DNA from: an uncultured Clostridia bacterium
Lineage (GTDB): Bacteria > Bacillota > Clostridia > Oscillospirales > CAG-272
Length of the DNA: 34,895 nt
Direction of reading: 5' to 3'
Assembly: GCA_944384555.1 (NCBI GenBank)
Contig: CALWTV010000267.1
Location: 1-34,895, forward strand
Under the pieces are notes generated by a model. The model was not told the origin of the DNA and made no database searches. It was given only the letters and a program-made list of their open reading frames with translations. The translations under genes and the position numbers were made by a program. Below, one piece after another: positions 13,470-34,339 of the stretch; position 1 is the stretch's first letter; each line of letters opens with the position of its first letter.

Positions 13470-14105
13470 ATGAATCAGTCGGTATCAAAAGCAACTTTGG
13501 GGCGACTTCCCATGTACCTTAGCTATTTGAAATCTATCCCGACAAAAGAAGTTACTAATATTTCTGCCGCTTCCATCGCTGAAGCTCTTAATCTGCATCC
13601 GGTTCAGGTTCGCAAGGATCTCGCCCTTATATCAGAAGGCGGAAAACCTAAAACAGGCTATGTTGCCGAAAATCTTTTAAGAGATCTTGAAAAATTTCTC
13701 GGATACAATAACGTAAACTGCGCGGTAATCGTTGGAGTAGGACATCTCGGACAGGCTCTGATGTCATACGAAGGTTTCAGTCAGTACGGTTTGAAAATAG
13801 TCGCTACTTTTGATGTGAAGGATACCTTGATTGACAAAGAAATTCATGGCAAAAAAGTTTTCTCCATTGATAAAATCCCTTATCTTTGTCCCAGACTTTG
13901 TGCCAATATAGGAATAATTACTGTACCTGCTGAAGCGGCTCAGTCCGTATGCGACAAACTTGTAGAAGCAGGTATACGGGCAATTTGGAATTTTGCTCCG
14001 GTGATTTTGAATGTTCCGGAGGGAATACTTGTTCAAAATGAAAATATGGCGGCATCGCTTGCTGTATTATCGAATCATTTATCAGAAACCATGAACAAAA
14101 GCTGA
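13470..14105 (+). CDS. rex: redox-sensing transcriptional repressor Rex
   Basis: 211 aa. N-terminal ATLGRLPMYLSYL wHTH followed by the Rossmann motif VGVGHLGQAL, which is characteristic Rex architecture. AGAGGTGA RBS. Confidence 0.9.
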   Translation: MNQSVSKATLGRLPMYLSYLKSIPTKEVTNISAASIAEALNLHPVQVRKDLALISEGGKPKTGYVAENLLRDLEKFLGYNNVNCAVIVGVGHLGQALMSYEGFSQYGLKIVATFDVKDTLIDKEIHGKKVFSIDKIPYLCPRLCANIGIITVPAEAAQSVCDKLVEAGIRAIWNFAPVILNVPEGILVQNENMAASLAVLSNHLSETMNKS

Positions 14106-14173: not shown

Positions 14174-16795
14174 ATGAGTGATAACAAAACAAACATTGTA
14201 AACACTGATATTGTAAACAATGGAGAAGCATTGGCAGCAAAAATTGCGCAGATAAGAGAAGCGCAGAAGAAATTTGCAACCTATACTCAGGAGCAGGTTG
14301 ACGCTATTTTTGCGGCAGCCGCATCAGCAGCCAACAAACAGCGTATACCTTTAGCTAAAATGGCAGTTGAAGAAACTGGTATGGGTGTTGTTGAAGATAA
14401 GGTAATCAAAAATCATTATGCGGCTGAGTACATTTACAACGCATATAAAAATACCAAAACATGCGGAGTAATTGAAGAAGATACCGCATATGGCATTAAG
14501 AAAATTGCTGAACCTATCGGTGTAATCGCAGCAGTTATTCCTACTACAAACCCTACATCTACTGCAATATTTAAAACTCTTATAGCTCTCAAAACCCGCA
14601 ATGGTATTATAATCAGCCCTCACCCCAGAGCAAAAGCTTGTACAATCGCAGCAGCTAAAGTTGTATATGAAGCAGCAGTTGCAGCTGGCGCTCCCGAAGG
14701 CATTATCGGTTGGATTGACGTTCCTTCACTTGAACTTACAACCACAGTTATGAAAGAAGCTGACATAATCCTCGCAACAGGTGGTCCCGGCATGGTTAAA
14801 TCCGCATATTCTTCTGGTAAACCTGCTGTCGGTGTAGGTGCGGGAAATACACCTGCTATCATTGACGATACCGCAGATATTCTTGTTGCTGTAAACTCAA
14901 TCATTCATTCAAAGACATTTGATAATGGTATGATTTGTGCTTCAGAACAGTCAGTAATCGTGCTTGAACCTGTTTACGAAAAGGTAAAAGCTGAATTTAA
15001 GGCTCGCGGCTGCTATTTCCTCAACCCCGATGAAACTGAAAAAGTTCGTAAAACTATATTAATCAACGGTGCGCTTAATGCTAAAATCGTTGGTCAGAGC
15101 GCACACAAAATTGCTGAACTTGCTGGAGTTTCTGTTCCTGAAAAAACAAAAATCCTTATCGGTGAAGTTGAAAGCGTAGAACTTGAAGAAGAGTTCGCAC
15201 ATGAAAAACTTTCTCCCGTACTTGCAATGTATAAGGCTAAATCCTTTACAGACGCACTTGATAAAGCAGAGCATCTTATCGCTGACGGTGGTTACGGTCA
15301 TACATCTTCCGTTTATCTCAACGCTACTACCGAAAAAGATAAACTCGCTGAGTTCAGCGCAAGAATGAAGACTTGCCGAATCCTTGTAAATACTCCTTCA
15401 TCACAAGGCGGTATCGGTGACCTTTACAACTTTAAACTTGCTCCGTCACTTACCCTCGGATGCGGTTCTTGGGGCGGCAACTCCGTTTCTGAAAACGTTG
15501 GAGTTAAACACCTTATCAATATCAAAACAGTAGCCGAGAGGAGAGAAAATATGCTTTGGTTCCGCACACCTTCAAAGGTTTATATGAAGAAAGGTTGTCT
15601 GCCCGTTGCTCTTGATGAGCTTAAGCACGTTATGGACAAGAAGAAAGTCTTCATAGTAACTGATGAATTCTTATACAAAAACAATTACACAAAGGCAATT
15701 ACAGATAAACTTGATGAAATGGGTATTCGTCATACCACATTCTGCGATGTTGCTCCCGACCCGTCACTTGCATGTGCTCTCGAAGGCGCTAAGGCAATGC
15801 GTTCATTTGAGCCTGACTGCATTATCGCACTCGGTGGTGGTTCCGCTATGGACGCAGGTAAAATTATGTGGGTAATGTACGAGCATCCCGAAGTTGACTT
15901 TATGGATATGGCGATGAGATTCGTTGATATTCGTAAGAGAGTATATACATTCCCGAAGATGGGCGAAAAAGCATTCTTTATTGCTGTTCCTACATCTGCT
16001 GGTACAGGTTCCGAAGTTACTCCGTTCGCGGTTATTACCGATGAAAAGACCGGTATTAAATATCCGCTTGCAGATTACGAACTTCTCCCCAATATGGCTA
16101 TCATTGACGCAGACCTTATGATGAATATGCCTCGCGGTCTTACAAGTGCATCAGGTATTGACGCAATGACTCATGCTCTCGAAGCATATGTCGCAATGCT
16201 CGCAACTCCTTATACAGACGGTCTTGCTCTTGAAGCACTTAAGCTTATCTTCAAATATCTGCCCAGAGCATACAATGATGGTGCTCATGACCCTGAAGCA
16301 AGAGAACAGATGGCTAATGCTTCAACTATGGCAGGTATGGCATTCGCAAACGCATTCCTCGGTGTATGCCACTCATTGGCTCATAAGCTCGGTGCGTTCC
16401 ATCATTTACCTCACGGTGTTGCAAATGCACTTATGATTAACGAAGTTATGAAATTCAATGCCGTTGATACTCCTGTTAAGATGGGAACATTCCCGCAGTA
16501 CGCTTATCCGCATACACTTGAAAGATATGCTCAGATTGCTGACGCTCTCGGACTCGGCGGCAAGACAAATGAAGAAAAATTCCAGAATCTGCTTAATGCA
16601 ATTGAAAAACTTAAAGAGACTGTTGGCATAAAGAAAACAATTAAAGATTACGGCGTTGACGAAGCTGACTTCCTTGCACGCCTTGATGAAATGGTTGAGC
16701 AGGCATTCGATGACCAGTGCACCGGCGCTAACCCCAGATACCCGCTTATGAGCGAGCTTAAAGAAATGTACCTTAATGCATATTACGGTAAATGA
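14174..16795 (+). CDS. adhE: bifunctional acetaldehyde-CoA/alcohol dehydrogenase
   Basis: 873 aa. N-terminal ALDH domain (catalytic MICASEQS) fused to a C-terminal iron-type ADH (GGGSAMDAGK, His-rich HSLAHKLGAFHHLPHG). Strong GAGGAGA RBS. Confidence 0.95.
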   Translation: MSDNKTNIVNTDIVNNGEALAAKIAQIREAQKKFATYTQEQVDAIFAAAASAANKQRIPLAKMAVEETGMGVVEDKVIKNHYAAEYIYNAYKNTKTCGVIEEDTAYGIKKIAEPIGVIAAVIPTTNPTSTAIFKTLIALKTRNGIIISPHPRAKACTIAAAKVVYEAAVAAGAPEGIIGWIDVPSLELTTTVMKEADIILATGGPGMVKSAYSSGKPAVGVGAGNTPAIIDDTADILVAVNSIIHSKTFDNGMICASEQSVIVLEPVYEKVKAEFKARGCYFLNPDETEKVRKTILINGALNAKIVGQSAHKIAELAGVSVPEKTKILIGEVESVELEEEFAHEKLSPVLAMYKAKSFTDALDKAEHLIADGGYGHTSSVYLNATTEKDKLAEFSARMKTCRILVNTPSSQGGIGDLYNFKLAPSLTLGCGSWGGNSVSENVGVKHLINIKTVAERRENMLWFRTPSKVYMKKGCLPVALDELKHVMDKKKVFIVTDEFLYKNNYTKAITDKLDEMGIRHTTFCDVAPDPSLACALEGAKAMRSFEPDCIIALGGGSAMDAGKIMWVMYEHPEVDFMDMAMRFVDIRKRVYTFPKMGEKAFFIAVPTSAGTGSEVTPFAVITDEKTGIKYPLADYELLPNMAIIDADLMMNMPRGLTSASGIDAMTHALEAYVAMLATPYTDGLALEALKLIFKYLPRAYNDGAHDPEAREQMANASTMAGMAFANAFLGVCHSLAHKLGAFHHLPHGVANALMINEVMKFNAVDTPVKMGTFPQYAYPHTLERYAQIADALGLGGKTNEEKFQNLLNAIEKLKETVGIKKTIKDYGVDEADFLARLDEMVEQAFDDQCTGANPRYPLMSELKEMYLNAYYGK

Positions 16796-16821
16796 GTTTT
16801 TGAAAGAAAGGTGCAATATTG

Positions 16822-17571
16822 ATGAATTTAGATAGAGTTATAGCAGTAAGAAATGATAAAACCGTATATCGTGACGGTGATCTTGCAATCAAGGTTTTTA
16901 ACGAAGACTATTCAAAGGCAAATGTATTGAACGAGGCATTAAATCAATCGAGAGTTGAGGAAACCGGACTTGCAATTCCGAAAATTCATGAAGTTACCCT
17001 GATTGACGGTAAATGGGCAATCGTTTATGATTATATCAAAGGCAAAACTCTCGCAGAGCTTATGGAAAAAAATCCTGACAAAATGGACGAATATCTTGAG
17101 CTTTTCGTAAATCTTCAGATTGAAATGCACTCTAAAAAAGCTCCTATGCTCGGTAAATTAAAAGATAAGATGACTCGTAAAATCAGCGAATCATCACTTG
17201 ACGCTACCACAAGATATGAACTCCATATGCGTCTTGATTCCATGCCTAAGCACGATAAGGTATGCCACGGCGACTATAACCCCAGTAATATAATCATTAC
17301 AGATGATGGCACTCCTTATATTCTTGACTGGTCTCATGCAACTCAAGGCAATGCTTCTGCGGACGTTGCACGCACTTACCTCCTGTTCTGCCTTGCTGGA
17401 GATAAGGAACTTGCAGATAAATATCTTAAGTTATTCTGTCAGAAGAGCGATACCCCTGTTCAGTATGTGAACAAATGGCTCCCGATTGTAGCCGCATCAC
17501 AATCAGTTAAAGGCAAACCCGAAGAACGTGAATTCCTCCTCAAATGGGTTAACGTTGTAGAGTACGAATAA
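16822..17571 (+). CDS. APH/choline-kinase family phosphotransferase (protein-kinase-like fold), substrate unknown
   Basis: About 249 aa. Brenner-type catalytic motif CHGDYNPSNIII followed by YILDW (HxDxxxxN...D). AAAGGTG RBS 7 nt before ATG 16822; the track begins one codon earlier at TTG 16819. Only 26 nt lie between the adhE stop and this start. Confidence 0.7.
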   Translation: MNLDRVIAVRNDKTVYRDGDLAIKVFNEDYSKANVLNEALNQSRVEETGLAIPKIHEVTLIDGKWAIVYDYIKGKTLAELMEKNPDKMDEYLELFVNLQIEMHSKKAPMLGKLKDKMTRKISESSLDATTRYELHMRLDSMPKHDKVCHGDYNPSNIIITDDGTPYILDWSHATQGNASADVARTYLLFCLAGDKELADKYLKLFCQKSDTPVQYVNKWLPIVAASQSVKGKPEEREFLLKWVNVVEYE

Positions 17572-17657: not shown

Positions 17658-17900
17658 ATGAATATCTCTATTTGTGTATGCACAGCTTGCCACGTAAACG
17701 GAGCTAAGGACATTGTTGAAAAACTTCAGAATCTTGTTGCTGAAAACAATCTCGGCGATAAAGTTGAACTCAAGGCCTCTTTCTGCGACGGAGACTGCAA
17801 AGACGGAGTATATGTTACTGTTGATGGAAAGGGATTTTCGCTCACAGCAGATAAAGTAGAAGAATTTTTTAAGGTAAACGTAATCGATAAACTCGCGTAA
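17658..17900 (+). CDS. thioredoxin-like [2Fe-2S] ferredoxin (HfsA/NuoE-like small protein), copy 1
   Basis: 80 aa from ATG 17658 (AAAGGAGA RBS 7 nt upstream; the track start TTG 17652 is less likely). Cys pattern C-x4-C ... C-x3-C (CVCTAC ... CDGDC). Confidence 0.7.
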   Translation: MNISICVCTACHVNGAKDIVEKLQNLVAENNLGDKVELKASFCDGDCKDGVYVTVDGKGFSLTADKVEEFFKVNVIDKLA

Positions 17901-17913
17901 GGAGAAATTTAAG

Positions 17914-18153
17914 ATGACAATTAACGTATGTGTAGGAAGCTCATGTCATCTCAGAGGCTCTTATAAAATAATTGAGCTTATGACCGAAGCATTGAAAAAA
18001 AACGGACTCGAAGATAAGGTTGAACTCAGCGCGGCTTTCTGTCTTGGAAAATGCACTCATGGCGTGTCAATAAAGGTTGATGACGAAGTTATATGCGGCG
18101 TTTCTCCTGAGAACTTTAATGAAATTTTTGACAAGTACGTACTGAAAAAATAA
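17914..18153 (+). CDS. thioredoxin-like [2Fe-2S] ferredoxin (HfsA/NuoE-like small protein), copy 2
   Basis: 79 aa paralog of the preceding ORF. Same C-x4-C ... C-x3-C spacing (CVGSSC ... CLGKC). AAGGAGA RBS. Confidence 0.7.
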   Translation: MTINVCVGSSCHLRGSYKIIELMTEALKKNGLEDKVELSAAFCLGKCTHGVSIKVDDEVICGVSPENFNEIFDKYVLKK

Positions 18154-18203: not shown

Positions 18204-19886
18204 TTGAATGAGTATCTGAAACTGAAAAAATCAAACTGCAAAAACTGCTACAAATGTATACGGAGCTGTCCCGTAAAATCAATAAAATTTTCTGACAATC
18301 AAGCACATATTGTAGGCGATGAATGTATTCTCTGCGGCGAATGTTTTGTTGTATGTCCGCAAAATGCTAAGGAAATACGAAATGATGTACAGACCGTAAA
18401 AAAACTTATTGCGTCCGGAACACGCGTTATCGCCAGTGTTGCACCTTCATTTACTGCAAATTACAGCGGAAGCACCATAACAGGTATGAGGAATACTCTG
18501 AAAAAGCTTGGTTTCTTTGATGCTTTTGAAACAGCGTCAGGTGCTGCCGATGTTAAAAACGCATATGACAAAATGATAGAAGAAGAAAAACAGGATGTTA
18601 TAATTTCAACCTGCTGTCATTCCATTAATCTGCTCATTCAAAAACATTATCCCGAAGCAATTAAATATCTTGCCCCTGTGATTTCTCCCATGCACGCTCA
18701 TTGTCTTGCAATAAAGAATAAATATCCCGATGCTAAAACCGTATTCATAGGACCATGTATATCTAAAAAAGCAGAAGCTGATCTGTATTCTGATGCGGTT
18801 GACTGCGCAATTACTTTTGAAGAGCTTACAGAGTGGTTGTATGATGAAAAATTAACGGTTGATTCCACTCCGGACCCTGAGGATATTAATGCTGGTAAAG
18901 CAAGAATGTTCCCGACTACGGGAGGAATTCTCAAAACTATGAAGTGCAGCAGCGAAAAGTATCAGTATCTCGCAATTGACGGGGTTATGAACTGTATAAG
19001 TGCTATAAAAGATATAATAAATGGAAATATTTCAAATTGCTTTATAGAAATGTCAGCTTGTGTAGGAAGCTGTATCGGCGGACCTGCAATGGATGAAGAT
19101 AACCGTGCTCCAGTGCGTGATTATATAGCGGTTGATAAATATTCACTTGACGGTGATTTCAAGCTTGATTTCCATGCGGCTGAAACAACTCCTAAGGAAT
19201 TCAGCTTTATAGGTGCGCGTCGTCAAATGCCGGGAAGCTCTGCAATTGCTGAAATACTAAAGAAAATGGGCAAAACTTCACCGAAACAGGAGCTTAACTG
19301 CGGCAGCTGCGGATATAATACTTGCCGTGAAAAAGCTATTGCGGTTATTAACGGAAAAGCTGATCTCACAATGTGTCTGCCATTCCTTAAAGAAAAAGCT
19401 GAGTCATTCTCAGATAATATTATTCAAAATACACCCAATGGAATTATTGTACTTAATGAAAATCTTGAGGTTCAGCAGATAAATAAGGCTGCCTGCAATA
19501 TGATAAACATTCAGAATGCTTCAGATATACTCGGAGACCAGGTAGTACGAATTCTCGACCCTCAGCCTTTCTTTGAAGTCGTTCAAACCGGACGCAATAT
19601 TCACGATAAACGTATATATCTTGCGGAATATGACTGTTATATAGAAGAAACTGTGATTTATGATAAGGAATATCATATAGTCATGTGTATGATGCGAGAT
19701 GTTACCGATGAAGAAAGACAGCGTATAAAACGTGAGAATATTTCAAAACAGACAATTGAAACTACTGATAAAGTTATTGAAAAACAAATGCGTATAGTTC
19801 AGGAAATAGCATCACTTCTCGGTGAGACCACGGCGGAAACAAAGATTGCACTTACAAAGCTAAGGGAGTCACTTAAAAATGATTAA
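18204..19886 (+). CDS. hydS: putative sensory [FeFe]-hydrogenase with C-terminal PAS domain (HydS / HfsB-like, group C architecture)
   Basis: 560 aa. It has two CxxCxxCxxxCP ferredoxin motifs and H-cluster motifs STCCH, GPCISKKAE and EMSACVGSCIGGP. A Cx2Cx4Cx16C motif (aa 366-391) and a PAS-like domain with a helical tail follow. TTG start 8 nt after GAGGGGAG. Confidence 0.85.
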   Translation: MNEYLKLKKSNCKNCYKCIRSCPVKSIKFSDNQAHIVGDECILCGECFVVCPQNAKEIRNDVQTVKKLIASGTRVIASVAPSFTANYSGSTITGMRNTLKKLGFFDAFETASGAADVKNAYDKMIEEEKQDVIISTCCHSINLLIQKHYPEAIKYLAPVISPMHAHCLAIKNKYPDAKTVFIGPCISKKAEADLYSDAVDCAITFEELTEWLYDEKLTVDSTPDPEDINAGKARMFPTTGGILKTMKCSSEKYQYLAIDGVMNCISAIKDIINGNISNCFIEMSACVGSCIGGPAMDEDNRAPVRDYIAVDKYSLDGDFKLDFHAAETTPKEFSFIGARRQMPGSSAIAEILKKMGKTSPKQELNCGSCGYNTCREKAIAVINGKADLTMCLPFLKEKAESFSDNIIQNTPNGIIVLNENLEVQQINKAACNMINIQNASDILGDQVVRILDPQPFFEVVQTGRNIHDKRIYLAEYDCYIEETVIYDKEYHIVMCMMRDVTDEERQRIKRENISKQTIETTDKVIEKQMRIVQEIASLLGETTAETKIALTKLRESLKND

Positions 19887-21057
19887 CTTATGTACCGATA
19901 TAGGCTACCACAGCCTGAATAAATTCGGAGAGCAGCTCTGCGGAGACCACGTTGATGTAGTAGAGCAGGAGGGCGATGGCAATTCTGTAATTGTAGTGCT
20001 TGCGGACGGAATGGGAAGCGGCGTAAAAGCAAGTATATTATCTACGCTGACTTCAAAAATTATTTCTACCATGATGGCGCAGTCAATGTCAATTGAAGAA
20101 TGTGTCGCAACAATTGCATCTACACTGCCGGTATGTTCGGTCAGAGGAGTTGCATATTCCACATTTACAATTATTAAAGTAACAAATAATTACGAAGCGG
20201 AAATTATACAGTACGATAATCCTCATGTAATTATGCTCAGAGACGGCAAATACTTTGATATGGAAGAAACTTCAACTAAAATTGGAGATAAGATAATATA
20301 CAAATCAAAAGTATATGTACGTGAGGGCGATACGTTTATCGCGATGAGTGACGGGGCAATTCATGCCGGAGTAGGAAAGAGTCTGAATTTTGGATGGCAG
20401 AGAGAAAACATTATTGAATTTATGGAAATGATGTATGATTCTGAATTTACTGCGAAAACGCTCTCTACAATCCTGCTTGATGAATGCAATCGCTTATATG
20501 AGAATGAGCCGGGAGACGACACTACTGTATGTACTGTTAAAATACGTCAGCGTGAATCAGTGAATTTGATGATAGGACCGCCTGCATCTCCTAATGATGT
20601 AAACAAAATGATGAGTTTGTTTTTCTCAAAAAGCGGAAAGCATATTGTTTGCGGAGGTACAACGTCGACTCTCGCCGCCGAATTTTTGGGCAAGGAAGTA
20701 AAAACAAATCTTATGTATATTGACCCTGAAATTCCTCCTACTGCGACTATTGAGGGAGTTGATTTGGTTACCGAGGGCGTAATTACAATAAATAAGGTAT
20801 TGACATATGCTCAGAGTTATCTTGCAGATAATCAGTATTATACGCATTGGGATTATAAAAAAGACGGCGCGTCACTTATATCAAAAATGCTGTTTGAAGA
20901 AGCTACCGATATAAACTTTTATGTAGGACGTGCGGTAAATCCGGCACATCAGAATCCGAATCTTCCTATAAATTTCAGTATAAAAATGCGTTTGGTAGAT
21001 GAGCTTTGCGAATGTCTTAAAAAGATGGGCAAACGGATAAAGGTAAGTTATTTTTAA
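19879..21057 (+). CDS. SpoIIE/PP2C-family serine phosphatase with C-terminal domain of unknown function (HfsC-like)
   Basis: 392 aa. PP2C metal-binding motifs LADGMGSG, AMSDGAIH and GDDTTV. The start overlaps the hydS stop by 8 nt (ATGATTAA), which suggests translational coupling. AAGGGAG RBS. Confidence 0.85.
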   Translation: MINLCTDIGYHSLNKFGEQLCGDHVDVVEQEGDGNSVIVVLADGMGSGVKASILSTLTSKIISTMMAQSMSIEECVATIASTLPVCSVRGVAYSTFTIIKVTNNYEAEIIQYDNPHVIMLRDGKYFDMEETSTKIGDKIIYKSKVYVREGDTFIAMSDGAIHAGVGKSLNFGWQRENIIEFMEMMYDSEFTAKTLSTILLDECNRLYENEPGDDTTVCTVKIRQRESVNLMIGPPASPNDVNKMMSLFFSKSGKHIVCGGTTSTLAAEFLGKEVKTNLMYIDPEIPPTATIEGVDLVTEGVITINKVLTYAQSYLADNQYYTHWDYKKDGASLISKMLFEEATDINFYVGRAVNPAHQNPNLPINFSIKMRLVDELCECLKKMGKRIKVSYF

Positions 21058-21113: not shown

Positions 21114-21764
21114 GTGCGTAAATTTGATACGAAAGTCCAGCTTTTAAAATATAAAGTTCTAAGAGAGGTTGCGCGTCTCAGTTTTAATGACCAATTGCTT
21201 GAGCATTACAACGATATTCCCAAAATAATCGTTGAAGGAAAAACTCCTACAATGCGCTGCTGTATCTATAAGGAGCGTGCAATTGTATCAGAGCGCATTA
21301 AGCTTGCGACAGGCGGAGATAAATCTAATCCCAATGTTATTGAGGTAATAGATATAGCGTGTGATGAATGTCCGGTAGGCGGATATGAAGTCAGCGATGC
21401 TTGCCGCGGCTGTATTGCTCATCGCTGCGAAGAAGTGTGCAAGCGAAATGCGATAAAGTTTGATGAACACCAAAAGGCGCATATAGATAAATCATTATGT
21501 GTTGAATGTGGAGCCTGCGCAAAAGTTTGTCCGTACAGCGCAATTGTAAACCGCAAGCGTCCATGTGAAAATGCCTGCAAGATTAAAGCGATAAGTATGA
21601 GCGAATCCAAAGCGGCACAAATTGATAATAATAAATGTATTGCCTGCGGTGCTTGTGTATATCAGTGTCCGTTCGGCGCGATTATGGATAAATCTTTCAT
21701 AATCGACGTTGTGGACTTAATTAAAAAGACCAAAAACAATACCGCTTACAAGCATTATGCCTAA
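21114..21764 (+). CDS. N-terminal fragment of the [FeFe]-hydrogenase: poly-FeS ferredoxin-like region (216 aa)
   Basis: Contains two CxxCxxCxxxCP motifs plus additional Cys clusters. It ends at the internal TAA. Confidence 0.5.
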   Translation: MRKFDTKVQLLKYKVLREVARLSFNDQLLEHYNDIPKIIVEGKTPTMRCCIYKERAIVSERIKLATGGDKSNPNVIEVIDIACDECPVGGYEVSDACRGCIAHRCEEVCKRNAIKFDEHQKAHIDKSLCVECGACAKVCPYSAIVNRKRPCENACKIKAISMSESKAAQIDNNKCIACGACVYQCPFGAIMDKSFIIDVVDLIKKTKNNTAYKHYA

Positions 21765-21875
21765 GTTGCTCCTTCTATTTCCAGCCAGTTCACATATGCG
21801 AAATTAGGTCAGGTAATAAGCGGAATTAGAGAGCTCGGTTTCTATCATGTAATTGAGGCTGCTCTCGGTGCTGAT

Positions 21876-22547
21876 ATGGTAGCATTTGAGGAATCAAAGG
21901 AACTTGTTGAAAAAGGATTTTTGACCAGTTCATGCTGTCCGGCTTTTGTAATGTATATCGAAAAGCAGTTCCCGCAGCTTGTTGATAAAATATCACATAA
22001 TCTTTCGCCTATGGCGATGATAGCTAAATATATTAAAAAGAGTGACCCAACAGCGAAAATTGTGTTTATCGGTCCGTGTACTGCGAAAAAAGCCGAGTTT
22101 CAGAAAGAAACGGTTAGACCTTATATTGACTGCGTAATTACATTTGAAGAATTGCAGGCTCTCATTGATAGCCGTGACATTGATATAACTACACTTCAAG
22201 AAGACGTTCTTGACAATGCTTCGTATTACGGAAGAATATTTGCGAGAAGCGGTGGATTGGCTGATGCGGTAAATCAGGCATTGAAAGAGCAGGGAATTAC
22301 CGATTTCAAATATAATCCGATAGCGTGTGACGGAATCGAGGCGTGCAGAACCGCGTTATTGAAAGCTTCAAAGAATGTACTGCCAAATAACTTTATTGAA
22401 GGAATGGCTTGTATAGGAGGGTGTATAGGCGGTGCAGGTTGTCTTACACATGGTGAAAAGAATAAAGCCGAAGTCGATAAGTACGGAATGGAAGCATATG
22501 AAAAATCGATAGAGGACGCAATCGCTATTTACAAAAATATAGATTAA
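21876..22547 (+). CDS. C-terminal fragment of the [FeFe]-hydrogenase: H-cluster domain (longest ATG-initiated ORF)
   Basis: Carries the TSSCCP, GPC..KK.E and MACIGGCIGG motifs. There is no RBS before ATG 21876 and no ATG/GTG/TTG in frame between 21765 and 21875, so independent translation is doubtful. Confidence 0.4.
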   Translation: MVAFEESKELVEKGFLTSSCCPAFVMYIEKQFPQLVDKISHNLSPMAMIAKYIKKSDPTAKIVFIGPCTAKKAEFQKETVRPYIDCVITFEELQALIDSRDIDITTLQEDVLDNASYYGRIFARSGGLADAVNQALKEQGITDFKYNPIACDGIEACRTALLKASKNVLPNNFIEGMACIGGCIGGAGCLTHGEKNKAEVDKYGMEAYEKSIEDAIAIYKNID

Positions 22548-22567: not shown

Positions 22568-22601
22568 AAGAGGACAATTGCTAATATGCAAAAGTCCTCT
22601 T
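22568..22601. terminator. bidirectional terminator between the hydrogenase gene (+) and mgtE (-)
   Basis: AAGAGGAC (22568-22575) pairs with GTCCTCTT (22594-22601). Both flanks are T/A-rich. Confidence 0.7.
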
Positions 22602-22616
22602 TATTAATTTAAATTT

Positions 22617-24011: not shown

Positions 24012-24335
24012 GTTGTTACTGCCCTCAATTTTTAAAATACTGAGAGCAGCCCCTCCTTTCAATTTAATGTGTAATGTTAGATTCAATCAGAACCTAATTC
24101 AAACACGCAATTTAGCAGATATGACGGAGAACCGTCCATACCCAAGGAAGGGGACAATTTGTGAAAGTCCAAAACTTGCGCAGTAATCTATTTAATTTTC
24201 AAAAAAGCAAACCAAACAGACGTCCTGCGGTCTGCAATAAAGTGCGGAGCACGGAAAAATATTATTGCAATTTGACATACACAATCGCCCTTTGGGTTTA
24301 CTGCTGCCTGCGTCCATTTGATTCACTCCTTTTCT
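24012..24335 (-). promoter_or_regulatory. structured 5' leader of mgtE (unclassified candidate riboswitch/attenuator)
   Basis: A GC-enriched block sits in an otherwise AT-rich 620-nt intergenic region. It has nested long-range complementarity (24097-24179 with 24267-24315) and local hairpins. A U-G pair in the SD-sequestering hairpin (24019-24049) fits the minus-strand RNA only. Confidence 0.4.
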
Positions 24336-24455
24336 ATAATTTCATTTTAATTCAATATAAAAAACAATGTATATGATTTTTATATTCTATAATTATTATA
24401 TATTTTTACCTTATATAAATCAAGTAATATGAATTAATTTTAGTTATAAAATTTT

Positions 24456-24498
24456 CAAAAAAACAAGAGCCGATATATGTTTATAATAACATATCGGC
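24456..24498 (-). terminator. rho-independent terminator downstream of the GNAT gene
   Basis: GCCGATAT (24469-24476) pairs with ATATCGGC (24491-24498). On the minus strand the stem is followed by TCTTGTTTTTTTG. Confidence 0.7.
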
Positions 24499-24706
24499 AT
24501 TATGAATATTTATTTTTTATTAATTTATTAATTTGATATATGAAAATCGTCTTGTAACTTTTTGAAAGTGCTTATACAATTGCTTGAAAAACCTATATTT
24601 TCAATTGTTTTCCTGCTTATATCGACATATAAATTGTTTACGTATACAGCAATAATACATATTTCTGTTTATCAGAAATATTCCTAATTCTTGATCTAAT
24701 TAGAAT

Positions 24707-26886: not shown

Positions 26887-27240
26887 TTGAAGCGTAAAAA
26901 ACATATAAATCAAGAATATTTGCCCCGTATTACAGAATATATAAGCCGTAAATTTGATTTGCCGATAGATGAAATTTCAAATATTCCCACAGTAGAAATA
27001 AAAAATGACAGTGAGGTATATGTGTGCGGCTGTATAGGAATAGAAAAATATGAATCTGAAATAATTATTCTCAGAATGAAAAAATGTCCTTTAACAATAC
27101 TCGGTAAGGGTATGTATCTTCACACTTTTACAGATATGCGGCTTTCCGTATACGGCAGAATAAACGCAGTAATATGGGGGAAAAACGTAAAAGACAGCCT
27201 GATGACTGTGACTGATTATACGGAGGATAATGAAAACTAA
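26887..27240 (+). CDS. yqfC: sporulation protein YqfC (YabP/YqfC family)
   Basis: 117 aa, located immediately upstream of yqfD with a TAATG stop/start overlap. The segment ...I..I..(y)(e)(s)E.I.l... is typical of the YabP family. TTG start 6 nt after AGGTGA. Confidence 0.65.
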   Translation: MKRKKHINQEYLPRITEYISRKFDLPIDEISNIPTVEIKNDSEVYVCGCIGIEKYESEIIILRMKKCPLTILGKGMYLHTFTDMRLSVYGRINAVIWGKNVKDSLMTVTDYTEDNEN

Positions 27241-28457
27241 TGCTTGGAATTATAAATTATTTTACCGGCTGGCATGATGTGACCATTCCTGCGGTTTCAA
27301 AAGAAACGGTTTTGACTTTTATGCTTTGCGGCGATTACGTATATTGGAATATGCGCAATAATGACGATGGTTCGATATCGTTTCGATTGCTGCACTGCGA
27401 TACTGATAAATTCACTGAAACTTGCAAAAAAAATTCCGTTGATGTAAAAATTGAACCGTTAAGAGGATTTCCGCGACTTATTATAAAATACAAAAAGCGA
27501 GTCGGACTATTAATTGGTATTTTAATGTTTGTTTTTTTAGTTCAGGTATCTTCTTTATTTATTTGGGAAGTTTCCGTTAGCGGAAATGAAAAAGTAACTG
27601 ATGATGAAATAATAGAGCTGTTGAACGAGCTTGGCTGTGGCGTAGGCTCGTATATTCCGTCTATAAATTTTGACCGTGTTCATAATGCGTTTCTGATGAA
27701 ATCCGAAAACATTGCATGGATATCTGTTAATCTGCGCGGCACTGTTGCAAATGTAGAGGTTAGGGAAATTATGTTTGGTCAGAACAGTGATGATAAGGAT
27801 TCAGTGACCTATTCAAATATTGTTGCGTCAGAGGACGGTCAGATTGAACTTATTGATACATATCAGGGAAGGGCGGTTGTAAACATAGGGGATTCCGTAC
27901 AGAAGGGAGACCTTTTAATAAGCGGAGTTCTTGATAACCAAACAATCGGACTTAGATATAAATCGGCAGATGGAAAAGTTTTTGCGAGAGTTAATAAAAA
28001 AATAGTGGTAGAAATTCCTAAAAAATATACACAAAAAGTCTATACTGGAAAATCTAAAACTCTTACAAGTGTAAAAATTTTCGGAAAATCAATAAATCTT
28101 TTTATAAACAGTGGAAATTTGAGTGCGACTTGTGATAAAATAATAAGGGAAGAAAAGCTGAATTTTTTTGGGACTATATCTGTGCCGGTAGTTATCGTTT
28201 CAGAAACATACAACGAATATGAAGAAAAAACAGTTATACTTGATGAAAACGAAATCGTTGACCGTGCTTTAAAGGAGCTTAGGGTTAAAACAGATGAGGC
28301 GCTTGAAAACGCTGAGCTTTTAGAGCGTACAATTAATTCGTTTTATGACGGGGAGGTGTATCGTATAGAGTGTTTGCTTTACTGTCTTGAAGATATAGCT
28401 GTGTCAAAACCTTTTGAGGTTTCGGAAAATTCTGCTTCGGATACCGCGGAGCAATAA
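27240..28457 (+). CDS. yqfD: sporulation protein YqfD
   Basis: 405 aa with a single TM (LLIGILMFVFLVQV). VSGNEKVTDDEIIELLNELG...IAWISVNLRGTVANVEVRE matches the YqfD pattern. Synteny with phoH-ybeY-era is conserved. Confidence 0.75.
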   Translation: MLGIINYFTGWHDVTIPAVSKETVLTFMLCGDYVYWNMRNNDDGSISFRLLHCDTDKFTETCKKNSVDVKIEPLRGFPRLIIKYKKRVGLLIGILMFVFLVQVSSLFIWEVSVSGNEKVTDDEIIELLNELGCGVGSYIPSINFDRVHNAFLMKSENIAWISVNLRGTVANVEVREIMFGQNSDDKDSVTYSNIVASEDGQIELIDTYQGRAVVNIGDSVQKGDLLISGVLDNQTIGLRYKSADGKVFARVNKKIVVEIPKKYTQKVYTGKSKTLTSVKIFGKSINLFINSGNLSATCDKIIREEKLNFFGTISVPVVIVSETYNEYEEKTVILDENEIVDRALKELRVKTDEALENAELLERTINSFYDGEVYRIECLLYCLEDIAVSKPFEVSENSASDTAEQ

Positions 28458-28491
28458 AAAATATTTAGTAAGGATGATATAATTATTTCGT

Positions 28492-29535
28492 ATGACAGAG
28501 AAAATTATAACAACAAAATCAAGTGATATTACATCAACAATTTTTGGAAGCTATGATTCAAACGTGCGTATGCTCGAAGATACTTTTTCAGTCAAAATCT
28601 TTAATCGTTCCTCTGATATTGATTTAGGTGACACTATTCATGTTACAGGTGAAAATTCATCTATGGTAGATAAAGCCGCAGAAGCCATTGAATATATGAA
28701 AAAAATGGCGGCACTTAATGAAAATTTAAGCGAACAAAGCGTAAATTATGTCATTGATATGGTAAACGAAGGCAAGGGAAGCGAGCTTGAGGCACTTGAT
28801 GATGACTGTGTATGTGTTACTGTAAAAGGAAAACCTATAAAAGCTAAAACTATAGGTCAAAAAAAATATGTAGACGCGATAAAAAATAATACAATAGTAC
28901 TCGGAATAGGACCTGCTGGAACCGGAAAAACGTTTCTTGCGGTAGCAATGGCGGTAAAAGCTCTGCGCGAAAAAGAAGTGAGCCGTATTATTCTTACCCG
29001 TCCTGCGGTTGAAGCCGGTGAGCGGCTCGGATTTTTACCGGGCGATTTGCAGAGTAAAATTGACCCTTATTTGCGCCCCCTTTATGACGCTCTATATGAA
29101 ATGCTTGGCGCTGAAAATTGTGCGCGTCATATGGAGAGATTGACTATTGAGATAGCTCCACTTGCTTATATGCGCGGACGTACGCTTGATGATTCATTTA
29201 TTATTCTTGACGAAGCGCAAAATACTACACCTGAACAGATGAAAATGTTTTTAACCCGATTGGGATATAATTCGAAAGCGGTTGTTACCGGAGATCTTAC
29301 TCAGACTGACTTGCCGTTTGGTAAAAAAAGCGGACTTGCCGCCGCGGAAAAAATCCTTGACGGAATAGAGGATATAAAGATTCATAAATTTACTGAAAAA
29401 GATGTCGTTCGTCATAAGCTCGTTCAAAAAATAATTCTTGCATACGAAAAATATGAGCGTGAAAAAATAAGAGAACGTGATTTTAAATCAGATGCAAAAT
29501 TTAAAATTAAAAAAATGGGAGGCAAAAAAATTTAA
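28492..29535 (+). CDS. phoH: PhoH family ATPase
   Basis: 347 aa. Walker A GPAGTGKT, Walker B ILDEAQN, and the conserved TGD.TQ.DLP segment. Confidence 0.9.
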   Translation: MTEKIITTKSSDITSTIFGSYDSNVRMLEDTFSVKIFNRSSDIDLGDTIHVTGENSSMVDKAAEAIEYMKKMAALNENLSEQSVNYVIDMVNEGKGSELEALDDDCVCVTVKGKPIKAKTIGQKKYVDAIKNNTIVLGIGPAGTGKTFLAVAMAVKALREKEVSRIILTRPAVEAGERLGFLPGDLQSKIDPYLRPLYDALYEMLGAENCARHMERLTIEIAPLAYMRGRTLDDSFIILDEAQNTTPEQMKMFLTRLGYNSKAVVTGDLTQTDLPFGKKSGLAAAEKILDGIEDIKIHKFTEKDVVRHKLVQKIILAYEKYEREKIRERDFKSDAKFKIKKMGGKKI

Positions 29536-29538
29536 ATT

Positions 29539-30024
29539 ATGAAACTTACGGTAGATTTCTGCAATGAACAAAATATTGTTCCCATTAGAAAAAGTTTCAA
29601 GCTTGTGCTTGAGCGTGCAATCAGGGAAACTCTCGCAAGTGAACGTTTTCCATATGATTCCGAGGTATCAGTAACATTTGTAGATAACGAGGAAATAAAA
29701 CGGCTTAATAATGAGTACCGTAATAAAGACTGCCCGACAGACGTGCTTTCTTTTCCGCTTTATGATTTTACAGATGATGATGTTGTTATTGAAAAAAATG
29801 AGCCGGTTGCACTTGGTGATATTGTAATTTCACTTGAGCAGGCGCAAATTCAGGCTGCCGAAATCGGTCATGGTGTATTGCGAGAAACTGTTTTTCTGTG
29901 TATTCATTCAATGCTCCATCTGCTTGGATATGACCATGAATTATCTGATGAAGATGATGAAAATATGCAATTTCATCAGAAAAAAATAATGGAACGATTA
30001 AATTACGGCATTATGAAATGTTAG
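29539..30024 (+). CDS. ybeY: rRNA maturation endoribonuclease YbeY
   Basis: 161 aa. Zinc motif HSMLHLLGYDH and the TDVLSFP segment. Confidence 0.9.
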   Translation: MKLTVDFCNEQNIVPIRKSFKLVLERAIRETLASERFPYDSEVSVTFVDNEEIKRLNNEYRNKDCPTDVLSFPLYDFTDDDVVIEKNEPVALGDIVISLEQAQIQAAEIGHGVLRETVFLCIHSMLHLLGYDHELSDEDDENMQFHQKKIMERLNYGIMKC

Positions 30025-30099
30025 ACAATTGAATAATATTACTGAAAAATATATTAAAGACAAATGTATAAAAGAAAGGCGCTTGAAAAAAGAAAAAAT

Positions 30100-30993
30100 A
30101 TGAAAAAAACAGCATTTATTGCGATTGTTGGACGTCCTAATGTGGGCAAATCAACGTTGCTGAACGCTATGATAGGTGAGAAAATTGCAATTGTTTCAAG
30201 TAAACCACAGACTACAAGAAACAGAATTACAGGAATTTTGACAATTGACGAAAATCAATTTGTGTTTCTAGATACCCCCGGTATTCATAAACCTCGTACA
30301 AGACTTGGTGATTATATGATGAAAACTGCAAACAGTACGATAGGTGCATCTGACGCAGTTATACTTATAGCAGAGGCGGATAAAAGCGTTGGTGAAATCG
30401 AGCGTTCAATTATTGAGCAAATAAAAGCGAGCGGACTGCCTTGCATGCTTGTACTTAATAAAGTCGATATCACAAATGCAGAAAGACTTGCAAAAACAAT
30501 AACAGAATATGCTTCACTTCATGATTTTGATGCCGTCGTTCCTGTATCTGCTTTAAAAAATAAAGATGTTGATACTGTTATTAAAGAAGCGGAAAAATTT
30601 TTACATGAAAGTCAGTGGTTCTTTTCTGAAGATATGGTTACCGACCAGCCGGAACGTCAAATTGCCGCGGAAATAATCAGAGAAAAAATTCTTCGTATGT
30701 TATCTGATGAAATACCTCACGGAACTGCTGTTGTAATAGAGGATTTTAAGGAAGAACCTAAAATTATCAAAATACGTGCCGAGATATACTGCGAGAGAAA
30801 TTCTCATAAAGGCATTATTGTTGGTAAAAACGGTGACACTCTTAAAACTATTGGCACATATGCCCGTGAAGATTTAGAAAATTTCTTTGGAATTAAAGTT
30901 TATTTAAATTTGTGGGTTAAAGTTAAGGAAAAATGGCGCGATAGTCAGGCAAATCTTAATAATTTCGGTTATGATTTGCGCGATTTAGATTGA
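30100..30993 (+). CDS. era: GTPase Era
   Basis: G1 GRPNVGKST, G3 DTPG, G4 NKVD, and a C-terminal KH domain (KGIIVGKNG). The ATG at 30100 gives the usual short N-terminus. The track ORF begins 12 codons earlier at 30064. Confidence 0.9.
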   Translation: MKKTAFIAIVGRPNVGKSTLLNAMIGEKIAIVSSKPQTTRNRITGILTIDENQFVFLDTPGIHKPRTRLGDYMMKTANSTIGASDAVILIAEADKSVGEIERSIIEQIKASGLPCMLVLNKVDITNAERLAKTITEYASLHDFDAVVPVSALKNKDVDTVIKEAEKFLHESQWFFSEDMVTDQPERQIAAEIIREKILRMLSDEIPHGTAVVIEDFKEEPKIIKIRAEIYCERNSHKGIIVGKNGDTLKTIGTYAREDLENFFGIKVYLNLWVKVKEKWRDSQANLNNFGYDLRDLD

Positions 30994-30997
30994 TTTT

Positions 30998-31807
30998 ATG
31001 GAAACTGTTACCGTAAACGGACTTGTGGTTCGTGAAACCGCAGTGGGCGAATCTGATAAAATTTTATCGGTGTTGACTGGAGAATACGGAAAAATTGCAG
31101 TATCGGCAAAAGGAAGCAAAAGTCTGCGCAGCCGTCATATGACAACAACTCAGCTGTTTTGTTACAGTTCGTTTACTTTATATCATCGAGGCGAATATTA
31201 TTATATAAATGACAGCGAGCTTTTAGAAGCATTTTTTGAAATACGTGCTGATATAGTTAGTTTGGCACTTGCCAATTATATATGTGAAGCAGCATCTTCT
31301 GTTACTGTAGAAAATATGGAAAGCAGTGATATACTTCGTCTCGCATTAAACACACTTTATGCGATGTCAAAACGAAACAGGCAAATGTCTATAATAAAAG
31401 GAGCATATGAATTACGGCTTGCTTGTTTATCTGGATTTGCGCCAAATCTTGTAGCGTGTTCGGAATGTGCGGCGTATTCATCACCGATTATGTTTCTTGA
31501 TATAATGAACGGCTCATTATTGTGCGGGGAGTGTCATAAACTTTATAGTGAAAGTTCTGATACCGAAATGGATACGCCTGAAACTGAATACGCAGACGGT
31601 GGATTTTTTAAAATAATGGTGCCGATATCAGAAGCTGTTTTGTCAGCTATGAGATATGTAATATATTCAAAGCCTGAAAAATTCCTTTCATTTATGCTTG
31701 ATGAAAGTGAAATTAAATCTTTTGCCGATATTTGCGAAAAATATTTATTAAATCATCTTCAGCGCGGATTTTATTCACTGGATTTTTATAAATCAGTAGC
31801 TGATTAG
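30998..31807 (+). CDS. recO: DNA repair protein RecO
   Basis: 269 aa. N-terminal OB fold (GLVVRETAVGESDKIL) and a CxxC...CxxC zinc motif (CSEC...CGEC). Position after era is conserved. Confidence 0.85.
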   Translation: METVTVNGLVVRETAVGESDKILSVLTGEYGKIAVSAKGSKSLRSRHMTTTQLFCYSSFTLYHRGEYYYINDSELLEAFFEIRADIVSLALANYICEAASSVTVENMESSDILRLALNTLYAMSKRNRQMSIIKGAYELRLACLSGFAPNLVACSECAAYSSPIMFLDIMNGSLLCGECHKLYSESSDTEMDTPETEYADGGFFKIMVPISEAVLSAMRYVIYSKPEKFLSFMLDESEIKSFADICEKYLLNHLQRGFYSLDFYKSVAD

Positions 31808-31836
31808 GATTTATGTGTATGTGCTTTTATAATCTA

Positions 31837-31861
31837 TTAATGTAGTAAAATTCTACATTAA
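31837..31861 (+). terminator. hairpin after recO (weak terminator candidate)
   Basis: TTAATGTAG (31837-31845) pairs with CTACATTAA (31853-31861). The downstream region is only moderately T-rich. Confidence 0.3.
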
Positions 31862-31945
31862 CTTATAACTTTATTTCCACGGTAATTTATAATCATTATA
31901 AGTAAAATTTAAGACGATAAAATTTATAAAATGTGTGTGTGAAAA

Positions 31946-34339
31946 ATGAAAAATATTGAAAAATCTATAAAAACTCTTGAGTTCGACGTCATTCTTGAAA
32001 TGCTTGCCGAACTCGCCCCTACAGAAGGTTCCGCTCAATTAGCAAGAGCTCTACGCCCCTCTTCTGACCCTGATGTGGTTGTGCTTAGACAAAGACATAC
32101 TTCCGATGCTAAAAGACTTGCAGGTATAAAAGGAATGCCGAGCTTCGGAAGAGTAAAAGATATTTCGGATTCCGCCGAACGTGCATATAAAGGAGCCGCT
32201 TTATCTATGCGCGAACTTCTTGATATTGCAGCAGTATTAAAAACTTCAAGATTACTAGTTGAATATATTAAAACTGACCACAATTTCGAAACTTCACTTG
32301 ATGAAATTTTTGAGCGTCTTGTGCCCAATCATACACTCGAAAATAAGATTACACGTGCGATTATTTCCGAGGACATGATAGCCGATGACGCAAGCCCCGA
32401 ACTTGCGGATATCAGAAGAAAAATGCGCAACACCAGCAATAAAATCCGTGATTTGCTTCAAAAATATATTACAGGCGGAACGAATGCAAAATATCTTCAG
32501 GAAAATATAGTTACCACAAGAAACGGACGCTATGTAATCCCTGTAAAAGCTGAATATAAAAATGAAGTAAAGGGTCTTGTTCATGATACCTCAGCGTCAG
32601 GCGCGACTCTGTTTATTGAGCCGATGTCGGTGCTTGAAGCAAACAATGAGCTGCGCACGCTTGAATCAAACGAAGCGCATGAAATTGAGCGCATACTTTT
32701 GGAATTGTCCGCAATGTGCGGAGATTTTGCCGAAGGACTTCGTTTCAATTATAAAAATATTACTGAACTGGCATTTTATTTTACATGTTCTGAATTATCA
32801 TACAAAATGAAAGCGGTTCAGCCAAAGCTCAGTGGTGATAGAACGTATTCTCTTTATAAAGCGCGCCACCCATTGCTCGATAGTGAAAAGGTTGTGCCAA
32901 TTGATATTTTTCTTGGCGGTGAATACCGTATGCTCGTTGTTACAGGTCCTAATACAGGCGGTAAAACGGTTACTCTCAAAACTTTGGGACTGTTTGCTTT
33001 TATGGCTCAGTCCGGATTGCATATTCCGGCAGAAGAACCATCAAGCATATGTTTATTTGACCAAGTGCTTGCCGATATCGGTGATGAACAGAGCATTGAG
33101 CAGTCACTTTCTACATTCTCATCTCATATGGTCGGCATTGTATCAATAATGGACAAGCTAACAGATAAGTCACTTGTGGTGTTTGATGAACTGGGAGCCG
33201 GTACAGACCCGGTAGAAGGAGCGGCTCTTGCGATTTCAATACTTGAACAGGTTCTTGAAAAAGGTGCTATGTGTGCGGCAACTACCCATTATGCGGAACT
33301 TAAAGCGTTTGCGCTTGAAACAGAAGGTGTAAGAAATGCGTCATGTGAATTTGATGTAGAAACACTTCGTCCGACATATAAACTTATAATCGGAACTCCC
33401 GGAAAATCGAATGCGTTCGCTATTTCTGAAAAATTAGGTCTCAGCGATAAAATAGTAAACCGTGCAAGGGAACTTGTAAACAGCGACAATAAAAATTTTG
33501 AATATGTTATTGAAAAACTTGAAGCTACCCGCATGGAAATGGAACGTGAACGTGATGAAGCAGCGCGGCTTAAATCAGAGTTTGAGCAGTTTAAAACAGA
33601 GGCTGAAACCGAGCTTAACCGACAGCTGAATAATGCAAAGCGTGACGCTGAAAAAGCAAAACAGCAGGCGCAGCAAATATTAAGCGGAGCTAAAGCGACA
33701 AGTGAATTTATTTTAAATCAGCTTGATGAAATAAAAAAACAGCAAGATGAAGAAAATTTTGGAGCAAAGCTTGCAGCTGCTAAAAAGGCAATACGTGCGC
33801 AGCTTAAATTTGGTGATGATATTTATAATCCCGTTGAAGACATTGACGAAGATTATGTTCTTCCGCGCCCTGTTAAGAAAGGCGACGAGGTAATAATCAG
33901 AAATCTCGGAAAACGAGGCGTAGTTATTGATGAGCCGGATAAAAACGGAAACGTCACTATAAGAGCCGGAGCAGTTAAAACACGTACAAAAATTGAGAAC
34001 CTCAGATTGATTGAAAATAGTGACAAGCATTCTAAGCCTGAGCAAAAAGATAAAAATTCTGTTGGTGGTTCGTACAGAACTAAAATTAGCCGAGATTTCA
34101 AAACAGAACTTGATGTGCGCGGAATGACTGGAGATGATGCTTGGTTTATGGTGGACAAATATCTTGACGAAGCTAATGTTGCCGGTATCAGCAGCGTTAC
34201 TATCATTCACGGAAAAGGTACGGGCGCGCTCAGACTCGCACTTTGGGGTTATTTCAAAAAAGACCCCCGCGTTAAAAATTTCCGAAGTGGTGCATTCGGT
34301 GAAGGCGATTACGGAGTTACCGTGATTGAATTAAAATAG
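31946..34339 (+). CDS. mutS2: endonuclease MutS2 (MutS domain plus C-terminal Smr)
   Basis: 797 aa. Walker A GPNTGGKT, DELGAGTDP, a central coiled coil, and a C-terminal Smr domain (LDVRGM...IIHGKGTGALR). Confidence 0.9.
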   Translation: MKNIEKSIKTLEFDVILEMLAELAPTEGSAQLARALRPSSDPDVVVLRQRHTSDAKRLAGIKGMPSFGRVKDISDSAERAYKGAALSMRELLDIAAVLKTSRLLVEYIKTDHNFETSLDEIFERLVPNHTLENKITRAIISEDMIADDASPELADIRRKMRNTSNKIRDLLQKYITGGTNAKYLQENIVTTRNGRYVIPVKAEYKNEVKGLVHDTSASGATLFIEPMSVLEANNELRTLESNEAHEIERILLELSAMCGDFAEGLRFNYKNITELAFYFTCSELSYKMKAVQPKLSGDRTYSLYKARHPLLDSEKVVPIDIFLGGEYRMLVVTGPNTGGKTVTLKTLGLFAFMAQSGLHIPAEEPSSICLFDQVLADIGDEQSIEQSLSTFSSHMVGIVSIMDKLTDKSLVVFDELGAGTDPVEGAALAISILEQVLEKGAMCAATTHYAELKAFALETEGVRNASCEFDVETLRPTYKLIIGTPGKSNAFAISEKLGLSDKIVNRARELVNSDNKNFEYVIEKLEATRMEMERERDEAARLKSEFEQFKTEAETELNRQLNNAKRDAEKAKQQAQQILSGAKATSEFILNQLDEIKKQQDEENFGAKLAAAKKAIRAQLKFGDDIYNPVEDIDEDYVLPRPVKKGDEVIIRNLGKRGVVIDEPDKNGNVTIRAGAVKTRTKIENLRLIENSDKHSKPEQKDKNSVGGSYRTKISRDFKTELDVRGMTGDDAWFMVDKYLDEANVAGISSVTIIHGKGTGALRLALWGYFKKDPRVKNFRSGAFGEGDYGVTVIELK

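Follow-up and report, generated by a model that had tools for sequence, protein, structure and literature searches.

The closest described counterpart of the locus studied here is the hfsABCD module of Thermoanaerobacterium saccharolyticum and T. thermosaccharolyticum, in which a PAS sensory hydrogenase (HfsB/HydS) and a serine phosphatase (HfsC) are followed, in the last place of the module, by HfsD, a ferredoxin-linked [FeFe]-hydrogenase that is functionally tied to adhE and rex (PMC5707799, PMC11837493). For Ruminococcus albus 7, the work of Zheng et al. 2014, summarised in the same two sources, describes HydA2 as a monomeric ferredoxin-dependent hydrogenase encoded beside the H2-sensing HydS, at a locus that also has genes for a protein kinase, a phosphatase and an alcohol/aldehyde dehydrogenase, and presents the hydrogenase gene as intact and expressed (PMC5707799, PMC11837493). 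Enzymes of this family, the group B [FeFe]-hydrogenases, are the leading producers of H2 in the human gut, and combine an N-terminal ferredoxin-like domain holding two off-pathway clusters with an H-cluster domain holding two more [4Fe-4S] clusters (Welsh et al. 2025, PMC12578642).

The window, by which we mean the whole stretch of 34,895 nucleotides analysed, shows the same gene order as the hfs module, and the last gene of its cluster is likened to HfsD by gene order and family. The cluster differs from that module in an in-frame TAA and in having the genes for AdhE, Rex, a kinase and two 2Fe-2S ferredoxins immediately upstream, all of them grouped together. Kinase, phosphatase and alcohol/aldehyde dehydrogenase genes are shared with the R. 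albus 7 locus, a likeness drawn from its description, although the hydrogenase gene of the window, unlike that of R. albus, is interrupted. The comparison with the gut group B enzymes is similar: same family and same two-part architecture, but with the copy in the window broken past its last FeS cluster, ahead of the H-cluster core. Both the enzyme family and the gene module are already well known, and an interrupted copy of this kind is, taken alone, an ordinary strain-level pseudogene.

Gene Cluster around the Hydrogenase

The features of the cluster, with their position in the window, are the following:

13470..14105, + strand: Rex-type redox-sensing repressor (Pfam Put_DNA-bind_N and CoA_binding; syntenic in many relatives)
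14174..16795, + strand: bifunctional acetaldehyde-CoA/alcohol dehydrogenase AdhE (NF010378, 1405 bits; syntenic in relatives)
16819..17571, + strand: APH/RIO-type protein kinase (syntenic in relatives)
17658..17900, + strand: small thioredoxin-like [2Fe-2S] ferredoxin, gene 1 (PF01257 present in homologs at related loci)
17914..18153, + strand: small thioredoxin-like [2Fe-2S] ferredoxin, gene 2
18204..19886, + strand: PAS-containing sensory hydrogenase HydS (Pfam Fe_hyd_lg_C, FeS (PF04060) and PAS; synteny in about 70 of 80 relatives)
19879..21057, + strand: PP2C/SpoIIE-type phosphatase, HfsC-like, intact (PF07228; overlaps the end of HydS by 8 nt)
21114..22547, + strand: whole frame of the group B (HfsD/HydA2-type) [FeFe]-hydrogenase (477 codons plus stop, one interruption)
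21114..21764, + strand: N-terminal ORF of 216 aa with the ferredoxin-like domain and F-cluster region (GTG start, GGGAGG RBS)
21762..21764, + strand: in-frame TAA, codon 217 (position 227 of TIGR04105)
21765..21875, + strand: 37 sense codons (VAPSISSQF...GAD) without a start codon, translatable only via readthrough of the TAA
21876..22547, + strand: mechanical ORF of 223 aa, the remaining H-domain with all H-cluster Cys motifs (no usable RBS)
22568..22603, no strand assigned: hairpin AAGAGGAC(N18)GTCCTCTT with TATT after it, in the gap that separates the hydrogenase gene from convergent mgtE, read by eye

The group B hydrogenase is the last gene of a conserved cluster that runs through Rex, AdhE, kinase, two 2Fe-2S ferredoxins, HydS and PP2C. 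In a set of 80 relatives, taken as one genome per species, the HydS-PP2C-hydrogenase order is kept in nearly all of them, frequently with AdhE, kinase and Rex genes upstream. The arrangement is that of an hfs or hydS-hydA2 module, with the PAS sensory hydrogenase upstream of the catalytic enzyme, the PP2C gene in between, and adhE, rex and kinase genes linked to them. The hairpin at 22568..22603 is likely a terminator, although a scan for consensus terminators did not call it, its loop being longer than 8 nt.

A Single Hydrogenase Gene with One Internal Stop

The window reads GCC TAA GTT at 21759-21767, and the TAA lies in frame with both the GTG at 21114 and the ATG at 21876 (offsets from the GTG of 648 and 762 nt, respectively), which confirms the common frame that the initial annotation had proposed for the 216-aa ORF and the H-cluster ORF. 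Translation of 21114-22547 gives 477 codons with a lone internal stop at codon 217, and a search for frameshifts across the same interval found none. The GTG is preceded, 7 nt upstream, by a GGGAGG, whereas the sole Shine-Dalgarno-like element before ATG 21876 is a GAGG located 17 nt upstream, a spacing too distant for it to act as the ribosome binding site. Moreover, the 37 codons at 21765-21875 contain no stop and no ATG, GTG or TTG, so that the previously noted lack of a second initiation site was borne out. These codons had also been read as the conserved start of the H-domain (VAPSISSQF...GADMV-type), and this holds; the Pfam Fe_hyd_lg_C match opens at the first codon after the TAA (profile position 7).

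As a family test, we used the NCBIfam profile TIGR04105 (FeFe_hydrog_B1, monomeric group B [FeFe] hydrogenase), with 462 positions and a cut-off of 450 bits. The conceptual read-through product, with an X at codon 217, reached 565.1 bits in a single stretch covering positions 1-461 of 462. Each half by itself fell below the cut-off, the 216-aa ORF matching positions 1-226 with 254.3 bits and the sequence from 21765 matching positions 228-461 with 294 bits, which places the stop at position 227 of the profile. A match so far beyond chance means that 21114-22547 is one gene and not two. The cysteines of the H-cluster, C274/C275 (TSSCCP), C322 (GPCTAKKAE) and C433/C437 (EGMACIGGCIGGAG, MACIGGC), belong to the L1 (TSCCP-like), L2 (PCxxKxxE-like) and L3 (MACxxGCxxG) motifs, respectively, and occupy invariant columns in an alignment of 18 sequences (the window plus 17 homologs), and no other damage was seen in the gene, as the initial annotation had stated for the Cys motifs and for the absence of secondary frameshifts. 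A group B hydrogenase is expected to be a single uninterrupted polypeptide in which the FeS domains are joined to the H-domain; with a TAA at codon 217 and no in-frame start for 37 codons, the locus as written is a disrupted member of the group, either a pseudogene or an error, rather than a working enzyme.

An alignment with CpI and an AlphaFold2 model situate the stop just past the helix that follows the last FeS cluster. Around the stop, the model shows a helix (194-205), a loop and a strand (214-215), and the TAA falls at the predicted first beta-strand of the H-cluster core, 3 residues ahead of the APS motif. The model, of moderate quality (mean pLDDT 63.9), served only to place the stop against secondary structure. 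The 216-aa ORF has 18 Cys, sufficient for four [4Fe-4S] clusters and, given the group B architecture, it includes the full set of four accessory clusters but no part of the catalytic core.

The Stop Column in Relatives

The best 120 database proteins are all uninterrupted, with lengths of 473-498 aa. Identity of the read-through product to uninterrupted homologs in this size range is 76-83%, the closest among the matches listed being at 83%. None of the 80 relatives shows either a stop or a gene boundary at this point, so a natural split of the orthologs into two genes, which would have given the interruption an ordinary explanation, was looked for and rejected.

The site of the stop could be located in 70 of the 80 relatives, where the column is occupied by Val (63), Leu (4), Ile (2) or Met (1); in the 18-sequence alignment, all 17 homologs have Val, within the motif YA-V-VAPS. 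It had been suggested that a TTA Leu codon changed to TAA in one step at a usually hydrophobic position. The hydrophobic character of the position stood in 70 out of 70 relatives, but the one-step route is just a possibility, since Val dominates the column and the closest relative, from an organism with 57% GC, has GTG there. All Val codons require two adjacent changes to become TAA, and the only one-step route goes through Leu TTA; no codon found in this column among the 70 relatives is one step away from TAA, and none of the Leu residues there is encoded by TTA.

A Recent Allele or an Assembly Artefact

Among the columns that are invariant in the 17 homologs, the window departs at two only, the stop itself and one S-to-T replacement. 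Moreover, the identity to homologs of the C-terminal half minus that of the N-terminal half is +0.003, compared with 0.000 +/- 0.036 for intact pairs. Since the 260 downstream codons carry no extra divergence, the stop must either have arisen very recently or be an artefact. Of these, we lean towards the first, a genuine nonsense allele of very recent evolutionary origin that affects the gene closing an hfs/hydS-type module. Points against a real allele include the two-step change needed from Val, together with the absence of the Leu TTA intermediate in the 70 relatives.

An artefact of sequencing or assembly, whether a low-coverage consensus error or a wrong path taken through a strain bubble, would leave the gene intact in the organism; we see it as rather unlikely, yet deserving serious weight. 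A stop present on one contig only, at a position where all 70 relatives with the site located have Val, Leu, Ile or Met, and followed by a perfectly preserved downstream half, is what such an error would look like, and other assemblies of the same species are of low coverage (2.1x) and fragmentary, two of them breaking in this gene at 21389. On the other hand, the remaining genes checked in the window (about 28) have full-length Pfam/NCBIfam matches or are continuous ORFs without frameshifts, and a 35-kb contig with no other broken gene is not error-ridden. Four independent ENA contigs from the same species are 99.96-100% identical to the window, with 2 differences in about 6,900 bases, and at one of them it is the window that has the commoner residue of the homologs. 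A miscall from a Val codon would likewise need two adjacent wrong bases, and in short-read assemblies one meets wrong substitutions in the consensus far less often than nonsense alleles that segregate in the population.

Further copies of the stop site were sought in several ways. Exact look-ups of the 216-aa and 223-aa products among 15 billion proteins returned this contig only, and none of the four same-species ENA contigs, retrieved through look-ups of neighbouring genes, reaches 21762. The species is present, at 99.97% identity, in ENA samples ERZ24773232, ERZ28614663 and ERZ28614994. A protein search with residues 94-477 gave nothing above 82% identity and no same-species copy, and in the search with residues 93-216 the only same-species match was the ORF of the window itself. 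An exact DNA pattern scan of JGI metagenomes for the stop site had 0 matches. A member of the GNAT cluster (P0136), tried as a route to another copy from the species, was discarded because of its unrelated context.

Natural Stand-Alone N-Terminal Halves

In the search with residues 93-216, a query of 124 aa, the longest target listed had 217 aa (1.75x the query length); the pile-up of matches of 204-217 aa comes partly from this length limit and not from biology, and the design finds N-terminal remnants only. Most of the short matches were set aside, uncounted, as candidates for further truncations, as they were contig-end fragments, frameshifted long-read calls or sequences with the adapter tail GRASCRERV. 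Two, however, are genuine truncated genes in the middle of their contigs: P0181 and P0192/P0295.

The first of them, P0181 (216 aa; locus L087, 3001-3651), is the gene next to HydS and PP2C on their downstream side, in a contig of 83 kb. Its homology to the hydrogenase ends after the codon equivalent to Tyr215, two codons from the stop of the window, and the genes that follow encode PBP_like_2 (a phosphate-binding protein), L33 and SecE. A cluster mate with at least 90% identity, P0291, continues normally into the H-domain, so the loss of this domain in L087 is recent; in another cluster mate, P0286, unrelated sequence takes over beyond about residue 243.

The second, P0192/P0295 (204 aa; loci L088-L092, 6001-6615), is a widespread form from an abundant Acutalibacteraceae species. 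It is named '4Fe-4S binding protein [Acutalibacteraceae bacterium]', its cluster counts 191 members, and identical sequences occur on up to 76 contigs, one of them of 2.5 Mb. In L092, the genes for AdhE, kinase, two ferredoxins, HydS and PP2C are followed by the 204-aa ORF, after which comes a cobW-family gene; DNA of the H-domain is absent there. When two lineages whose DNA differs by 5% are compared, the 204-aa ORF has accumulated 26.5 synonymous and 4.5 non-synonymous differences. The resulting omega of 0.039, which resembles that of the neighbouring genes, indicates an old, constrained gene under strong purifying selection and not a decaying remnant.

P0192/P0295 and P0181 come after HydS-PP2C as in the window, cover positions 1-221 and 1-223 of TIGR04105, respectively, keep all the FeS cysteines and end within 13 residues of the window's stop. 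In both, however, the H-domain DNA is gone and a cobW-family or PBP_like_2 gene comes next, whereas the window has a complete H-domain with one codon changed. The truncated forms show 84-87% identity to their closest intact relatives versus 71-75% to other truncated forms or to the window. Each truncated form having closer intact relatives, the losses of the H-domain were independent, and such independent natural losses make a real knockout in the window biologically plausible. The existence of natural stand-alone equivalents of 204 and 216 aa also supports an earlier proposal for the window, namely that the 216-aa polyferredoxin could plausibly still be made.

These cases suggest that the FeS half may be able to function on its own, without the H-cluster, and the recurrent loss of the catalytic half with the FeS half kept hints at an H-cluster-independent role for the N-terminal FeS region of group B enzymes. 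A stand-alone polyferredoxin might relay electrons, or it might work together with the signalling proteins PP2C/HydS. That the window itself represents the first step of this recurrent shedding of the H-domain, with the polyferredoxin kept as a selected stand-alone protein and the allele tolerated or favoured, seems to us improbable.

The strains with the 204-aa ORF also differ to the left of it. Comparison of L088-L091 with L092 shows three left-hand contexts, a full hfs-like cluster, glycoside hydrolases and a phage-type integrase region, joined at one point inside the PP2C gene, near locus position 5565. When L088 is compared with L092, the retained C-terminal piece of PP2C, of 140 codons, shows 37 differences that are synonymous and 0 that are non-synonymous. 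The junction near 5565 is possibly an integration site, or else the boundary of a selected C-terminal PP2C fragment.

Readthrough and Two-Piece Readings

Low-level readthrough had been listed by the initial annotation among the candidate explanations of the stop. In its fullest form, the stop would be read through usefully, be it by programmed or leaky decoding or by a suppressor tRNA, giving mostly the 216-aa polyferredoxin and some full-length hydrogenase. The frame intact 3' of the stop, as well as the evident usefulness of a stand-alone FeS half in another lineage (omega 0.039), speak circumstantially for it. TAA is nevertheless the main genuine terminator of the window, ending 18 of the 29 ORFs tabulated, which also led us to reject a reassignment of this codon. 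The predicted fold of the RNA at and beyond the stop is not more stable than that of shuffled sequence (z = +0.5), an Rfam scan of the window gave zero matches and a tRNA scan of the window found no tRNA gene. With the stop present in 0 of 80 relatives, nothing conserved exists that could be called programmed. A TAA followed by G is also an efficient termination context. Fold, Rfam, tRNA and conservation being all negative, useful readthrough at this stop is highly improbable.

A functional two-piece enzyme is, in our estimate, just as hard to believe. Here the H-domain would be a separate translation product, initiated at ATG 21876 or at a non-canonical start, that joins the 216-aa FeS protein in the manner of the heterodimeric [FeFe]-hydrogenases of other groups, such as the large and small subunits of Desulfovibrio (PDB matches); ATG 21876 is indeed in frame. 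Nevertheless, the preceding 37 codons have no ATG, GTG or TTG, and the GAGG lies 17 nt from that ATG. A product started at M255 would lose the VAPSISSQF...GADMV segment, which has the invariant A219, P220, S224, Q225 and F226 and spans the initial 38 residues matched by Pfam Fe_hyd_lg_C. The region lost before M255 includes the counterpart of the CpI contacts of Pro231/Ser232 to the H-cluster. In addition, the split is seen in 0 of 80 relatives, and in the natural truncated forms no gene for the H-domain follows. A promoter scan of the window found promoter-like sites at chance level, without excess. Programmed readthrough and a functional two-piece enzyme are both unsupported.

Expected Consequences of the Stop

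If the TAA is the genuine nonsense allele towards which we lean, translation from GTG 21114 would halt at codon 217 and release a 216-aa protein that retains every cysteine needed by four [4Fe-4S] clusters. The 260 codons of the H-cluster core would go untranslated, because no start or ribosome binding site follows the stop and TAA is a normal terminator. The strain would then be devoid of this ferredoxin-dependent H2-evolving enzyme, with sensor, phosphatase, kinase and AdhE intact. What we observe is the stop itself, the homology to a single gene, the lack of rescue signals and of downstream decay, and the independent H-domain losses in relatives; we infer the presence of the stop in a living population and not in the assembly alone, the stability of the 216-aa protein and any phenotype.

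In this regard, a push of electrons towards ethanol was the outcome anticipated in the initial annotation. The genetics of Thermoanaerobacterium, the only genetic work available for this module, contradicts it: in T. saccharolyticum, deletion of hfsC and/or hfsD left ethanol as in the wild type and sent flux to lactate, while it was deletion of hfsA or hfsB that raised ethanol (PMC5707799). High ethanol in T. thermosaccharolyticum requires, in turn, hfsD to be present and hfsB absent, and the loss of hfsD increased formate about fourfold (PMC11837493). If these results transfer by analogy to the present locus, the knockout would lower the H2 made by this enzyme, and the increase would fall on lactate or formate instead of ethanol.

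A real stop would mean that this strain of a spore-forming gut Clostridia species has just lost its ferredoxin-dependent H2-evolving enzyme under HydS control, with the sensor circuit retained. It would be a natural counterpart of the engineered hfsD knockouts, and could show how the balance of lactate, formate, ethanol and H2 shifts in a gut organism. Were the stop an artefact, it would teach no more than caution with pseudogenes from MAGs seen on a single contig.

Other Features of the Contigs

Two of the ENA contigs, L001 and L002, come from different projects and assemblers, are 99.97% identical to the window and both end at window position 21389, inside the hydrogenase gene and 373 nt upstream of the stop. 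L002 starts at window position 18151, whereas in L001 the sequence upstream of 18150 is an unrelated ORF with a DNA-methylase-like 'IADPYYN' motif, which replaces the ferredoxin genes. The shared breaks at 21389 and 18150/18151 indicate that assembly graphs are not simple at this locus, and suggest that branch points or structural variation flank the HydS-PP2C segment. Neither at 18150 nor at 21389 was there a repeat, or an exceptionally long k-mer in common with other species, that could explain the breaks. A chimeric contig joined at 21389 was also considered and is unsupported, as the same protein, P0001, is the closest to the whole hydrogenase and to residues 94-477.

The only coding difference from the ENA copies is at position 20382, with T in the window and G in L001/L002, so that residue 168 of PP2C is Ser (AGT) in the former and Arg (AGG) in the latter; relatives commonly have Ser or Ala. 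The sole non-coding difference, at 24444 with respect to L083, lies in an AT-rich stretch of 620 nt without genes (24087-24706), situated between mgtE and a GNAT acetyltransferase gene, where GC is 23-29% versus 36% for the window. Finally, 26887-34339 holds an intact run of genes conserved in Clostridia, comprising yabP and yqfD (sporulation), phoH, ybeY, era, recO and mutS2, whose gene content indicates a spore-forming host among the Bacillota.
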